DNA of 64,000 nucleotides from Planctomycetota bacterium (GCA_002720975.1 PBIX01000007.1:58251-122250); one strand, 5' to 3'; counted from the stretch's first letter, positions 37,715 through 43,671 are shown. Notes: a model not told the origin generated them from the sequence alone. Numbers and translations are program-made.

Positions 37715-38518
37715 TCAACCGAAAGCTGCCGCCTTGGTGCGGCGCCTGACCGGGACTCCACCGGTCACGGTACCCGAGAAGAGAAACGTCCCCTCGATTC
37801 GCCAACCGGGACGCGGAGGTGGCTGGCCGTGCTCTTCTAATTGCCAAGGGCTGACGAACAACAGGAGCGGGCGCTCGGGAGCGTCCGTCACGAGCAGATC
37901 CACCGCTTGGCCGGTGAGGGGGTTTCGCAGGTGCTGGATCGACCGCACACGCAAGGAGACGTCTGAACACCCGCCCGGCGCACTGGGATCGCCGAGAGGT
38001 GCCACGAACGCGCCGCGACGTTGCTCCAGGATGCTCGGATCGCAGACGCCCTCATTGGGCCCCACGTAGTCCACGTGCAGCGCAAAGCCGGCGATGCTCA
38101 CGGCCAGCACATGGTTTATTGGCATGTGGGGAGGGAGTCGCTGGGCATCCACCAGCCAGGTCGCCAGACGATAGGCACCGGGCTCACCCGGTTGGAGCAG
38201 AGGCCCGGGATCGCCGGGGTTGGGTGGGCAGGCCCAACCCGTGAGCAGGGCATCGAAGGGTGAGTCGGGTACGTGGTTCAGCGTCTCGATCCCCATGCGT
38301 AGCCGATGGGGGGAGCGGTAGTGGGGCAAGAGGGTCCAGAAGTCCTTGCCCTCCTCCCGGTCAAGACGGACTTCAAGGCCCGCACCCAGCGCGAGGGTCC
38401 GATGTTCCTGAGGATCACCACGCCAGGGGGCGGGGTCGCCTTCCTGCACGACCTGGTCCACGAGAGCCTCGTGATCAAGGTCCGGGGGAAAACCGATGCA
38501 TTCCAGAAGAAAGTCCAT
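37715..38518 (-). CDS. Hypothetical protein
   Basis: From ATG 38518: MDFLLECIGFPPDLDHEALVDQVVQEGD.... 267 aa with no recognisable motif. Confidence 0.45.
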   Translation of the reverse strand: MDFLLECIGFPPDLDHEALVDQVVQEGDPAPWRGDPQEHRTLALGAGLEVRLDREEGKDFWTLLPHYRSPHRLRMGIETLNHVPDSPFDALLTGWACPPNPGDPGPLLQPGEPGAYRLATWLVDAQRLPPHMPINHVLAVSIAGFALHVDYVGPNEGVCDPSILEQRRGAFVAPLGDPSAPGGCSDVSLRVRSIQHLRNPLTGQAVDLLVTDAPERPLLLFVSPWQLEEHGQPPPRPGWRIEGTFLFSGTVTGGVPVRRRTKAAAFG

Positions 38519-38648
38519 GGGCGTTGGGCTCGGGAGGGAGACAGGGCACAGGATAGGCTCTTTGGGAGAGGGCGTCTCTGCTTGGACATCCGGCCGCCTC
38601 CCGCTTCGGACTGCCACGCCCATCCCGTCCATGGGCTACCATCTGCAC

Positions 38649-39230
38649 ATGTCCTGGATACGCACCATTTCTCTGGAGGAGGCCACCGGGCGTCTGAAGC
38701 GTTCCTACGACGCAGCCGTACAGCGCGCTGGAGCCGTGGCCGGCATCGTGCGCGCCATGAGCCTCTCGCCTCCGGTCCTGGACGCCTCCATGGGGCTCTA
38801 CCAGCGGATCATGTTTGCGCCGGAGGGCCTGAGTCGCGTGCAGCGCGAGCTGTTGGCCACAGTGGTCAGCCAGACCAATGACTGTCACTACTGAGTGCAC
38901 TCCCATGCTGGGGATCTCCGTGCTGAGCTCCTACAAACCGATGCCGAGCCCGAATCCGTTGAGAGCCTCGTGGACGCCGTTCTCACGGGCTGGAGCTCCG
39001 CGGACCTCTCTGCTGCGGACAAGGCCCTGTGTGTGTATGCGGAGAAGCTGACGAGGGACCCGGCGGCCATGAGCCAGGAGGACGTGGAGGTTCTGCGTAC
39101 GGCGGGGTTCGACGATGAGGCCATTCACGACGCCGTGCAGGTCATCAGCTACTTCAACTACATCAACCGTGTGGCTGATGCGACGCACGTAGACCCGGAT
39201 CCGGGCATGCCGCCCTACCCCGAAGGCTAG
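38649..39230 (+). CDS. AhpD/carboxymuconolactone-decarboxylase-family peroxidase-related protein with in-frame TGA (38892-38894); candidate selenocysteine
   Basis: Track ORFs 38496..38894 and 38895..39230 share one frame and are split only by TGA. The joined text is ...LLATVVSQTNDCHY[TGA]VHSHAGDLRAEL..., which fits CxxCxxxH with the TGA at the second Cys. The N-terminal MSWIRTISLEEATGRLKRSYD and C-terminal VISYFNYINRVADA fit the family. Confidence 0.6.
38897..38923 (+). promoter_or_regulatory. Candidate SECIS-like hairpin immediately 3' of the in-frame UGA
   Basis: GCAC(38897-900) UCCC(901-904), loop AUGCUG, GGGA(911-914), bulge UCUCC, GUGC(920-923). Drawn by eye and not energy-evaluated. 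Confidence 0.2.
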
Positions 39231-41743
39231 TTGGCCTCACGGACCGTACGCCAACCGTCTACCTCCAGCTCCAGGTTCGACGTCGCCCCCGAGGGCCAGC
39301 GGATCTCGGCTTGAATGCGATCCGGTACCGTCCCCAGCCCAAAGTGCAGCTCGGGAGGATTGCCAGCAAGGTAGCTCGTGCCCGCCCCCAGACTCCTGCG
39401 CCAGGCTTGGTTGCCACTGCGCAGAGTGACCTCGGCACCGATGGCGGGCGAGCCGGTGTCGCCGGTCAGAAGGCGTAACCCCAGCCAGCGGCCCGTACGC
39501 GGCGCGTCGTTGCGTAGGAGCTGCAGGACCGAGTTGTTGGCGGTCACGGCCAGGTCCAGGTCGCCATCCCTGTCGAAGTCACAGGCAGCGGCCGCCCGAG
39601 AGGGGAGAGCGCGCAAGAGAGCACTGCCGGCAGACGCGCTCACGTCCGTGAAGCGTCCGCTCCCATCGTTGGTCAGCAGGTGGTTGGGCTGGCCGACGCA
39701 GATGCCCGTGCTCTCGTAGTCGGGGCTCGTGTAGCCATTGGCCACGAACAGGTCCAGGTCGCCATCGCACTCCAGGTCGAAGAGCACCGCGCCCCAGGAC
39801 GTGTAGCCGATGCTGCCCACCAGTCCCGCGGCCACCGTGCCATCGTGGAAGCTCGCCCGTCGATGTTTGGCCTCGTAGGGCGAGTAGAGGTTTGACAAGT
39901 ACAGGGCATTGGCTTCCAGCTGCCAGTTTGTCAGGAACAGGTCCTCGTCCAGGTCCCCGTCCACATCCCCGATGGCGAGCCCCATACCTCCGCGGGGGTC
40001 GTCGACCCCGGTCCTGTAGGAGATGTCCTGGAAGGTGCCATCGCCCTCATTGCGGTAGAGCACGTTGAAGCTCACATCATTGGCCACGTACAGGTCCGGG
40101 TCGGCATCCCGGTCAAAATCCCAGAAGATCGGCTGCATGCCACGACCGTTTGCGTCCGTCAGGCCCAACTCTTCGGTGACGTCCTCAAAAACCAGATCGC
40201 CTTCGTTGCGCAAGAACACGTTCTCCCCCGCTGGGAACGCAAAGGGCAGCATGGGCAGAGGGTCCTCGCGCTGGTAGGACTGCATGTCCGGGCCGCGCTC
40301 CATCTTCGTCAGGTCGAAGTCCAGGTAGCGCGTAACGTAGAGGTCCAGGTCGCCGTCCTTGTCGTGGTCAGCGGCCGCGAGGCCCGCACTCCACTGGTCA
40401 GAAGCGAGAGACGCAGGCAGCGGGACGGGGCTGAAGTGTCCGCTCCCGTCCCCTTCGAGCAGGACGTCCGGGCCACGATTGGCCACGTAGAGGTCGAGGT
40501 CGCCATCACCGTCGGCGTCGAAGAACAGGGCACCCATGCCTGCGCCCGTCGCCTCGGCCCCTGAGCCCAGCGTGATGTCTTCGAAGTGATCTCCTCCTAC
40601 GTTTCGTAGGAGGCGGTTGGGCAAGGGGCCCGTCTCCGGGCGGCCAGATCCCTGTACCAGGTACAGGTCGACCCACCCATCCCCATCCACGTCGCCCCAG
40701 GCAAGACCCGGACCCATCGTGGGGGCGATGGTGAGCTGTTCGGCGGGCCCCTCCAGGTGCAGATTCTCAAGGCCCAAGTGTGAGGTCACGTCGCAGAACC
40801 AACCGGTGGACGGCGCGGATTCTGTACGTGGCGCTCTCCGCGTTTCGATTTCCGCACACTCAATCTCCACCAGCACGGTCCAGGTGCGACCCGGCTGCGC
40901 GCGATGGGGAGGATCGAACCACAGATCCAGGGTCTCGTGCGCGACGAGAGGTGCCGTCCAGGGATCTGGCTGGGTGCCCTCCTGGGTTTTCTTGCCGTCG
41001 TTGCGCTCCCAATCGCGGAGGAGTAGAGGCACACCCGCTGTGCCCTGCACCTCTTCGACCCGCGCGAAGAACGCCTGATCGAGGCGGGCCCCACCCGGCT
41101 CGACGTGCACGTTCTGTTTGGCATGGGCGGGGAGAACGAGGGCTTCTCGCCGGCCGCCGCCCAGCGTGTGCGGGACTCCGTCGACCATCACAGCGTGCGG
41201 CGTGCCTGCGCCATCTCCGGCGATCAGGACCAGACTGTGTGGAAGGATGCCCCAGTCGGGCGGGACAAGGGTGACCGCCGCCGTGGAAAGGTGCTGACCA
41301 TCCTGGCGCGCAAGCCAGGGGAGATGGCTCACACTGGGCAGGGTCTCACGGGGCAATTGGCTAGGGCCCACCACCAGGGCTCCTTCGGATCCGACGAGGA
41401 GCTGGTGGCCCACCGGGTGCTGGATGGCCCGCAGGGCGAGGTCCACGATCTGCCATCGAGCTGACCCTTCGAGGCGCAGTCCCAGGCCCCTGCGGGTGCG
41501 CTCAGCCCGGACAACCTCCTCTGAGCGGCTCACAAGGGGAGCCAGGAGCAGTTGGCGCCCCTCTCTCAGGGAGCCCAGGAGCTCCGGCTCAGGGCTGTTG
41601 AGTGCCCACAGGCCGTGTTCGGGGCGGTCTCCTGCCAGAGGCTGGCGAGGAGAGCAGCTGGCCCCGAGGGCCAGGAGAAGGAGCGCGGTGGGCAGGTTCT
41701 GCACGGATCTGTTGTCCTCGCTCAACGCAACGCGCTCCGCCAA
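39227..41743 (-). CDS. CRTAC1-family protein (FG-GAP/VCBS repeats plus ASPIC/UnbV domain), lipoprotein
   Basis: Many DxDGDGxxD loops (WGDVDGDGWVDLYLV, FFDADGDGDLDLYVAN, DHDKDGDLDLYVT, DFDRDADPDLYVAN, IGDVDGDLDEDLFLTN, CDFDRDGDLDLAVT). The C-terminus is UnbV/ASPIC-like (GAEVTLRSGNQAWRRSLGAGTSYLAGNPPELHFGLG). Lipobox LALGASC. The start codon is uncertain (TTG at 41743). Confidence 0.8.
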   Translation of the reverse strand: MAERVALSEDNRSVQNLPTALLLLALGASCSPRQPLAGDRPEHGLWALNSPEPELLGSLREGRQLLLAPLVSRSEEVVRAERTRRGLGLRLEGSARWQIVDLALRAIQHPVGHQLLVGSEGALVVGPSQLPRETLPSVSHLPWLARQDGQHLSTAAVTLVPPDWGILPHSLVLIAGDGAGTPHAVMVDGVPHTLGGGRREALVLPAHAKQNVHVEPGGARLDQAFFARVEEVQGTAGVPLLLRDWERNDGKKTQEGTQPDPWTAPLVAHETLDLWFDPPHRAQPGRTWTVLVEIECAEIETRRAPRTESAPSTGWFCDVTSHLGLENLHLEGPAEQLTIAPTMGPGLAWGDVDGDGWVDLYLVQGSGRPETGPLPNRLLRNVGGDHFEDITLGSGAEATGAGMGALFFDADGDGDLDLYVANRGPDVLLEGDGSGHFSPVPLPASLASDQWSAGLAAADHDKDGDLDLYVTRYLDFDLTKMERGPDMQSYQREDPLPMLPFAFPAGENVFLRNEGDLVFEDVTEELGLTDANGRGMQPIFWDFDRDADPDLYVANDVSFNVLYRNEGDGTFQDISYRTGVDDPRGGMGLAIGDVDGDLDEDLFLTNWQLEANALYLSNLYSPYEAKHRRASFHDGTVAAGLVGSIGYTSWGAVLFDLECDGDLDLFVANGYTSPDYESTGICVGQPNHLLTNDGSGRFTDVSASAGSALLRALPSRAAAACDFDRDGDLDLAVTANNSVLQLLRNDAPRTGRWLGLRLLTGDTGSPAIGAEVTLRSGNQAWRRSLGAGTSYLAGNPPELHFGLGTVPDRIQAEIRWPSGATSNLELEVDGWRTVREAN

Positions 41744-43251: not shown

Positions 43252-43671
43252 GGTGGAAGTGAGAGGTCCGATAAGCCGGGTTCTGTTCCTCCCCGTGAGG
43301 GGAGGCGACGACCATTTCTCTGGGACCGGAGTTGCCTCCGGCCTCGAACGACCTACCCGGAAGGTGTGAGCGCGGGTCATCGCCCGTTGACCTTCCCTAT
43401 TTGGTCTTTCTCCGCGTGGGGTTTACCTTGCCAGTCCTGTCACCAGGAACTGCGGTGCGCTCTTACCGCACCCTTTCAGCCTTGCCGCCCGCACCGAAGC
43501 GCGGGGTTGGCGGTCTACTCTCTGTTGCACTTTCCCTGGCCTCACGGCCGGTTGCCGTTAGCAACCACACTGACCCGAGGAGCCCGGACTTTCCTCCCTC
43601 CCAGCTCGCTCGGCCCAGTTGCCTGTGCCTCGCGGTCCTGGAGAGCGGCCGCCTGGGCCTCTCACTTCCGG
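43252..43671 (-). ncRNA. rnpB: RNase P RNA, bacterial type A
   Basis: The reverse complement carries the universal blocks GGAGGGAGGAAAGUCCGGGCUCC, GGGAAAGUGCAACAGAGAG, GGUGCGGUAAGAGCGCACC, CAAGGUAAACCCCAC and ACAGAACCCGGCUUAUCGG. P1 pairs GGAAGUGAGAGG (5', 43658-43669) with CCUCUCACUUCC (3', 43255-43266). The ends are good to about 5 nt. Confidence 0.92.

Follow-up and report, generated by a model that had tools for sequence, protein, structure and literature searches.

The present study concerns a gene in a stretch of DNA of 64,000 nt (64 kb) from a Planctomycetota bacterium (PBIX01000007.1:58251-122250), which is hereafter called the window and to which all coordinates refer. Two open reading frames (ORFs) on the forward strand, 38496..38894 and 38895..39230, lie in one frame and are separated solely by a TGA at 38892-38894. 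They are one intact gene (38649-39230, +) of the AhpD-like, or "peroxidase-related enzyme", family (TIGR01926, COG2128) with the carboxymuconolactone decarboxylase (CMD) fold, and it is very probable that the UGA, which is codon 82 of this gene, is decoded as selenocysteine (Sec). The features on which the argument first depends are as follows.

38649..39230, + strand: predicted AhpD-like selenoprotein coding sequence (CDS), 193 codons including Sec82, with ATG start and TAG stop (from the translation and TIGR01926)
38892..38894, + strand: in-frame UGA, codon 82, probably read as Sec (from TGA in orthologs, the alignment with the Cys column and six identical assemblies)
38883..38906, + strand: redox motif C79-H80-Y81-U82-V83-H84-S85-H86 (Y81 and H86 are invariant in alignment A2; U82 as predicted)
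38847..38849, + strand: Glu67, 12 residues before Cys79 (invariant in alignment A2)

One gene of the AhpD-like family

An original prediction, made from the DNA alone, had reported an in-frame TGA in a C-x-x-TGA-x-x-x-H context, and the positions of the ORFs and their translation agreed with it in coordinates, frame and motif. Read from the ATG at 38649, the joined frame comprises 193 codons, places the TGA at codon 82 in the context S-Q-T-N-D-C79-H-Y-(TGA82)-V-H-S-H86-AGDL, ends at a TAG stop at 39228-39230, and contains no further frame defect. The ATG at 38649 is likely to be the start codon because homologs begin at an equivalent MSWI/MAWI/MAHI position and because the TIGR01926 profile begins at residue 2.

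Regarding the family, which had been named as AhpD/CMD in the same prediction, the joined protein was scored against profiles with the TGA replaced by Cys. It matched the Pfam CMD family PF02627 at 45.2 bits (cutoff 23) and the NCBIfam model TIGR01926, "peroxidase-related enzyme", at 141.2 bits (cutoff 81.8), the latter over residues 2-185 and profile positions 1-177 of 178, so that the call is upheld by both models. Solved homologs in the PDB (6k40, 2oyo, 3c1l and 2pfx) were aligned with almost the entire protein at E = 1e-28 to 2e-22, the best of them being 6k40, which is DR1765 of D. radiodurans (E = 1e-28, residues 11-185). Since the sequence match to solved structures reaches this level, the fold and the alignment of the motif may be regarded as fixed, and the joined protein is predicted to adopt the all-helical CMD/AhpD fold. 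By every sequence-level measure, the protein is a full-length member of the AhpD-like selenoprotein family (TIGR01926/COG2128, CxxU).

Two related models were not matched at their cutoffs. The canonical AhpD model TIGR00777 gave 25.5 bits against a cutoff of 191.95, with only the core motif region (residues 55-99) being matched. NF041238, which represents the AhpD-related CFYUT (seleno)protein that appeared as "hypothetical protein 1" in the Sargasso Sea survey, gave 77.6 bits against a cutoff of 175, and only the C-terminal half of this 357-position model was matched by the joined protein.

The UGA at the redox column

The TGA occupies the column of the second Cys of the CxxC motif in the solved homologs, which read CVYC in 6k40, CLYC in 2oyo and CYYC in 3c1l, and two Cys-form relatives, P0005 and P0115, also carry Cys in this column. 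The assignment of the TGA to the second redox Cys, which had previously been made from the motif, is therefore borne out by the alignment. Relatives were sought by scanning one genome per GTDB species, which yielded 594, and the codon was read in the best 80 loci. All of these 80 loci carry TGA in the context C-x-Y-TGA-x-x-x-H, and they come from Planctomycetota, Vicinamibacterales/Acidobacteriota, Chloroflexota, Latescibacterota, Gemmatimonadota, Gaiellaceae/Actinomycetes, Zixibacteria, Calditrichaceae and others. TGA is also present at this column in the syntenic relatives L001-L004 (~78% amino acid identity) and L006-L010 (~55-58%). Both of the kinds of relative that the original prediction had proposed to look for, namely those with TGA and those with Cys, were thus found.

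Counted as distinct orthologous sequences, 85 of 85 from at least eight phyla carry TGA at the redox column, and this conservation is far beyond chance. The position is also singular within the window: of the 12 TGA codons that a scan found with coding-like sequence on either side, only that at 38892 has a redox-motif context.

A conserved stem-loop downstream of the UGA

The second line of evidence is a stem-loop that resembles a selenocysteine insertion sequence (SECIS) and lies within the coding sequence.

38911..38932, + strand: conserved SECIS-like stem-loop (95.5% paired, with compensatory changes and synonymous-codon constraint)
38911-38918, + strand: 5' arm of the stem-loop, GGGAUCUC
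38919-38924, + strand: loop of the stem-loop, CGUGCU
38925-38932, + strand: 3' arm of the stem-loop, GAGCUCCU

The stem begins 16 nt and the loop 24 nt after the UGA, with G at the second loop position, and this loop start is within the 16-37 nt range of the bSECISearch model. When the 60 nt after the TGA were folded in the 85 distinct sequences, a recurrent helix, GAYCUC-(CGNGNN)-GAGRUC, was found from 21 nt past the U of the UGA. The six-pair core of this helix (columns 25-30 with columns 37-42 of the gapless alignment A3) is paired in 95.5% of cells across the 85 sequences, and displacing the 3' partner by 1-3 columns lowers the pairing to 25-50%. Compensatory changes are present at two pairs, one of which is C-G in 61 sequences, U-A in 15 and U-G in 3, and the other C-G in 82 and U-A in 2. 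None of 500 shuffles matched the observed number of cells paired, the number of cells changed on both sides, or the covariation score.

The core helix overlaps the codons for a conserved D-L-R-x-E-(V/I/L) peptide, and because it sits in these conserved D-L-R-x-E-(V/I) codons, selection at the RNA level was tested separately. Since the Cys-form controls are not clean, as described below, a synonymous-codon null was used, in which the amino acids were kept and the codons were redrawn from each gene's own usage in 1000 draws. Under this null, 73.9 +/- 1.4% of cells were paired (maximum 78.2), as against the observed 95.5%, and 10 +/- 3 perfect helices were expected, as against 67 observed among the 85 sequences. 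The same constraint is visible in individual codons: CUC is used for the hairpin Leu in 82 of 83 sequences, compared with 35% CUC elsewhere in the same genes, and GAG for the hairpin Glu in 82 of 84, compared with a background of 63%, the two GAA codons being paired with two UUC (Phe) variants. These results show that the hairpin is under RNA-level selection. In the window lineage, Leu (CUC) is present where most orthologs have Val or Ile, and the helix therefore has a U.C mismatch at 38915/38928, which is flanked by additional G-C and G-U pairs at the stem base. Fifteen orthologs have GAUCUC/GAGAUC, in which this pair is U-A.

The hairpin initially drawn by eye, at 38897-38923, was also considered as a SECIS element. 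It is the local minimum-energy fold (-12.3 kcal/mol), but shuffled sequences do equally well (z = -0.6), it is not conserved across orthologs, and its 5' arm would be within the ribosome while the UGA is in the A site; the element at 38911-38932 was preferred. The expectation of a stem-loop downstream of the UGA thus held with respect to SECIS-like distance, covariation and synonymous-site constraint, but not with respect to its position.

Selenocysteine machinery beside orthologs

Genes for Sec decoding adjoin several of the orthologs. In three loci from metagenome-assembled genomes (MAGs) of Gaiellaceae/Actinomycetes (L054, L078 and L083), a tRNA-SeC gene with the anticodon UCA lies ~1.3 kb upstream of the ortholog. 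In L054 and L083, selB (TIGR00475, 346-353 bits, cutoff 242) and selA (TIGR00474, 485-506 bits, cutoff 268) are located 2-4 kb downstream of it, and in L078 selA/selB are placed downstream by tblastn matches only. In a Planctomycetaceae MAG (L039), the ortholog is followed after ~200 nt by selB (328 bits), which is on the same strand.

In L054 (8641-15240) and in the equivalent stretches of L078 and L083, the AhpD-like selenoprotein gene is flanked by tRNA-SeC on one side and by selB-selA on the other. No other recognisable selenoprotein gene (e.g. fdhA) and no selD were seen in these three stretches or in L039 10001-12734, which may represent a compact Sec cassette that serves one client gene. 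The cluster of tRNA-Sec, AhpD-like gene, selB and selA looks like a self-contained "Sec cassette" that might be able to move between genomes together with its client. That the AhpD-like protein is the main or only selenoprotein in some lineages, and hence the reason why the Sec-decoding apparatus has been retained there, is a speculative extension that we regard as unlikely.

Active site and proposed mechanism

All five positions of the AhpD proton relay are present in the joined protein with the same spacing, as Glu67, Cys79, Tyr81, Sec82 (as predicted) and His86. The corresponding residues are Glu118, Cys130, His132, Cys133 and His137 in the AhpD of M. tuberculosis (MtAhpD), and Glu36, Cys48, Tyr50, Cys51 and His55 in PA0269 (PMC3141380). 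The Glu-to-Cys spacing is 12 in Glu67-Cys79, as it is in Glu118-Cys130 of MtAhpD and Glu36-Cys48 of PA0269. In MtAhpD, Cys133 is exposed and cross-links with Cys61 of AhpC, and Cys130 is partly buried (PMC6626918). Sec82 would occupy the attacking position because it is equivalent to Cys133 of MtAhpD. Sec in redox enzymes is usually found at the attacking position. As for the closest solved homolog, which is also the nearest one to have been characterised, a knock-out of DR1765 was sensitive to H2O2 and its complementation depended on the CxxC motif, according to the summary in PMC8945050 of the work of Zhao et al. (2020).

Based on comparisons with these homologs and with known Sec decoding, the following course may be proposed. 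When the UGA reaches the ribosome, the stem-loop at 38911-38932 would be just outside the mRNA channel, and SelB carrying Sec-tRNA(Sec) would bind it and deliver Sec in competition with release factor 2. The product would have a redox centre of Cys79-x-x-Sec82, backed by Glu67, Tyr81 and His86, as suggested by the homologs. By analogy with MtAhpD, the selenolate of Sec82 would attack an oxidised partner or a peroxide, after which Cys79, the counterpart of the resolving Cys130, would resolve the intermediate to form an internal selenenyl-sulfide, and a reductant would then re-reduce this Cys79-Sec82 bond. We infer from the comparisons above that Sec is inserted at the UGA in the source organism. 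With less confidence than for the decoding, the protein is likely to be a selenol/thiol oxidoreductase that functions in peroxide/antioxidant defence by cycling through the Cys79-Sec82 selenenyl-sulfide.

Counter-evidence and alternative explanations

Several observations weigh against this interpretation, in part against the stem-loop as a SECIS element, in part against Sec decoding in the source organism and in part against the proposed function. Regarding the stem-loop, the hairpin of the window lineage is weaker than the family consensus, having the U.C mismatch and folding at only -7.1 kcal/mol when 38911-38932 is taken in isolation. An unconstrained fold of the region favours a competing hairpin further upstream (-12.7 kcal/mol, compared with -9.2 kcal/mol with the conserved helix enforced). 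By comparison with the E. coli fdhF system, this competitor would have its 5' arm, 6-13 nt after the U, inside the ribosome with the UGA in the A site, whereas the conserved helix would lie outside. No Rfam family matched the stem-loop, and a permissive threshold applied to 38850-39000 gave chance-level matches only.

The Cys forms are a further difficulty. The closest of these, L091 (protein P0005, 305-814), has TGC at the Sec column and 61% identity, and it keeps a perfect hairpin, GACCUC-CGUGUC-GAGGUC, at the SECIS position with 6/6 pairs. The more distant Cys form L092 keeps 5/6 pairs and L093 keeps 4/6. Part of the helix may thus arise from the coding of D-L-R-x-E-V and not from a SECIS function. 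The hairpin in L091 suggests either that a recent Sec-to-Cys conversion left a fossil SECIS or that coding requirements constrain the helix in part. A mutual constraint between the SECIS helix and the D-L-R-x-E-V peptide is also conceivable, in which case Cys forms such as L091 would carry a fossil SECIS as the mark of a recent Sec-to-Cys conversion.

Regarding the decoding apparatus, ARAGORN detected no tRNA in the 64-kb window, an Rfam search of the window found RNase P only, and selA, selB and selD were absent among the top 25 families listed in an NCBIfam scan of 85 window ORFs. Approximate E. coli SelA, SelB and SelD sequences, used as tblastn queries, matched other loci and gave no match in the window. 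With SelB of L039 as the query, more than 7,900 matches were obtained, none of which was linked to the source organism, and a Tara-derived SelB (P0208) led to unrelated samples. Concerning the function, no AhpC-TSA/Redoxin family was found among the genes called within +/-10 kb in the syntenic loci L001-L004 and L006-L009. No neighbouring gene is conserved across phyla among the orthologous loci, and the only synteny is lineage-specific, with a peptidase M1 gene in Planctomycetota and an Ada-like AraC/MGMT gene in Chloroflexota.

Among the alternatives, the one that survives best, although we consider it improbable, is read-through of the UGA with an amino acid other than Sec, for instance Trp or Cys, whether through near-cognate decoding or through a lineage-wide reassignment of the codon. 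The lack of visible Sec machinery of the source genome in the window would fit this explanation, as would the many database entries that show W at the codon. However, TGA ends 24 of the 46 long ORFs in the window and is the commonest ordinary stop there; the codon is therefore not reassigned, and the W calls are artefacts of gene callers. The one W call that was checked in DNA, P0009 (L005 418-420), has TGA as its codon and is thus an artefact of translation table 4. Furthermore, the codon occupies the position of a catalytic Cys, a conserved stem-loop that is under selection at the RNA level lies downstream of it, and orthologs adjoin selB, selA and tRNA-Sec.

A pseudogene of the AhpD-like family with a recent nonsense mutation is still less probable. 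Gene callers and GenBank do give fragments, the C-terminal half having been deposited as a 111-aa "hypothetical protein", and no Sec machinery was seen in the window. Nevertheless, the TGA is at the same catalytic column in all of the 85 distinct orthologous sequences, and a nonsense mutation would not arise repeatedly at that column in different phyla. In the nearest genome locus, L011 (Planctomycetota MAG UWMA-0345), which has 89% nucleotide identity over the syntenic region, the TGA is retained. Relative to L011, synonymous codon changes outnumber non-synonymous ones by 18 to 3 in the part before the TGA and by 16 to 4 in the part after it; both halves of the gene evolve under purifying selection, and the frame has no other defect. 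The pseudogene explanation is effectively refuted, and the earlier judgement that the gene is not decaying is sustained by the same data.

The third alternative is that there are two small genes, an N-terminal protein of 81 residues and a protein of 111 residues that restarts by translational coupling at the GTG at 38895. A GTG does directly follow the TGA in the window, and many database calls are of 81-87 aa and 108-114 aa. As had been anticipated, gene callers split the gene: L001-L004 and L006-L010 are each divided into an 81-87-aa ORF abutting a 109-114-aa ORF, and the 111-aa GenBank fragment is a further instance. However, a start-capable codon (ATG, GTG or TTG) follows the TGA in only 17 of the 85 orthologs, the others having ACG, ATT, ATC, CTG, AGA etc. 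A division at this point would also cut the active site between Cys79 and His86, within a helix-borne motif that is in a single chain in the solved homologs. We therefore find this explanation hard to credit, and Sec at an internal codon of one gene is preferred.

The last alternative is that the TGA stands, through an error of sequencing or assembly, in place of TGC or TGT. A difference of one base would suffice for this, and the existence of Cys forms in the family might favour it, but it is of negligible probability, since the identical 582-nt CDS including the TGA is present in six independent assemblies from different samples, which answers the concern over read errors raised in the original prediction. 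Contig DASCRK010000197.1 of assembly GCA_034406675.1 carries the identical gene. In the collection, 53 blocks have an index entry for exactly this C-terminal product, and relatives at no more than 89% nucleotide identity also have TGA.

Genomic surroundings

The gene ends against a convergent neighbour.

39227..39230, unstranded: convergent gene end, at which the TAG stop (39228-39230) overlaps the stop of an FG-GAP/UnbV_ASPIC gene in the palindrome CTAG

The FG-GAP/UnbV_ASPIC gene (838 aa, 39227-41743, -) is convergent with the AhpD-like gene, and the shared CTAG end is kept in L001-L004. On the other side, a divergent ORF (37715-38632, -) has no Pfam or NCBIfam match, and it is conserved as a gene for a hypothetical protein of 267 aa that immediately precedes the selenoprotein gene in L001-L004 and L009, which are syntenic loci from Planctomycetota. 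A bacterial class A RNase P RNA (RF00010, 278.5 bits, full length) was found at window positions 43256-43664 (-), ~4 kb downstream of the AhpD-like gene, in a gap that gene callers left empty in the syntenic loci.

Comparison with known systems

The gene in the window is a correct call of an already known kind, the family having been described since 2005. The AhpD-like CxxU family was reported in the Sargasso Sea selenoproteome with 27 sequences assigned to COG2128 and a predicted SECIS in a figure (Zhang, Fomenko and Gladyshev, 2005, PMC1088965). Among the prokaryotic selenoprotein families of the Global Ocean Sampling data, "AhpD-like 1" ranked fourth in abundance, with 299 Sec sequences and 902 Cys homologs (Zhang and Gladyshev, 2008, PMC2398784), and a 2026 review has the entry "AhpD-like protein, TIGR01926, CxxU" (PMC13188914). 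These three sources bear out the statement in the original prediction that Sec-containing AhpD-like proteins had already been reported, and the family may also be browsed in BSepDB (PMC13326102). The window gene has in common with this family a TIGR01926 score above the cutoff, a CxxU motif with Sec as the second redox residue, a setting in marine metagenomes, and a downstream stem-loop with a small apical loop that contains G. Nothing substantive differs, the distinguishing details being the U.C mismatch and the extra basal G-C pairs of the window hairpin, and the fact that GenBank has the window gene solely as a 111-aa "hypothetical protein" fragment.

Regarding individual proteins, DR1765 (6k40) has the same motif spacing as the window protein, but with Cys (CVYC) at the position where the window protein would have Sec. 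The AhpD of M. tuberculosis (Rv2429), a lipoamide-linked reductant of AhpC, shares the CMD/AhpD fold and the Glu...Cys-x-x-Cys-x-x-x-His layout. In contrast to MtAhpD, the window protein falls outside the TIGR00777 subfamily, has no ahpC/peroxiredoxin gene nearby, and carries Tyr in place of His between the redox residues and, as predicted, Sec in place of Cys133.

The decoding signal resembles that of E. coli fdhF in being a stem-loop that lies in the coding sequence a short way 3' of the UGA and has a G in its small apical loop. The presence of selB, selA and tRNA-Sec genes beside AhpD-like orthologs is a likeness to the SelB-dependent recoding of fdhF. In contrast to the fdhF element, the window stem-loop, which is a candidate SelB site, has no sequence similarity to it and doubles as the codons for D-L-R-x-E-(V/I/L).

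Database annotation and significance

In a search of 5.8 billion proteins, the best 120 matches were classified. Fifty-three were C-terminal fragments of 106-127 aa whose first residue is at the TGA column or soon after it, 52 were full-length with W at this column, and the remainder comprised four CxxC forms, seven TxxC forms and four unclassifiable entries. The exact 111-aa C-terminal product is deposited in GenBank as MBJ75611.1/HJM58146.1, "hypothetical protein CMJ98_01195 [Planctomycetes bacterium]". At least 105 of the 120 nearest database entries are thus distorted, either as a fragment or by a false Trp at the catalytic position.

Some individual entries may be described here. The W-bearing matches are found among P0007-P0026 and others, and for them gene callers have apparently switched to translation table 4, and P0017 has Gly at the TGA column, possibly as the result of a table-25 call. 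In P0117 (158 aa), the C-terminal half of the homolog is fused to a short, zinc-ribbon-like CxxC...CxxC tail (precomputed Pfam matches PF21349 and PF23458), and this type of domain fusion was not seen in other orthologs.

The main value of the present finding is the correction of an annotation, in which two fragments are to be merged as one selenoprotein. The distorted entries affect any profile, alignment or structure prediction that is built on them and represent a systematic contamination of public sets. The gene in the window opens no new question in itself, and the most interesting remainder is the clustering of sel genes with the AhpD-like gene in Gaiellaceae and in one Planctomycetaceae MAG, together with the apparent fossil SECIS in a Cys form. 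With respect to the organism, the decoding of the UGA as Sec would imply that it keeps the Sec machinery and needs selenium. One more Planctomycetota lineage, which is apparently abundant in metagenomes, would then be placed among the users of a Sec-dependent thiol/selenol oxidoreductase.

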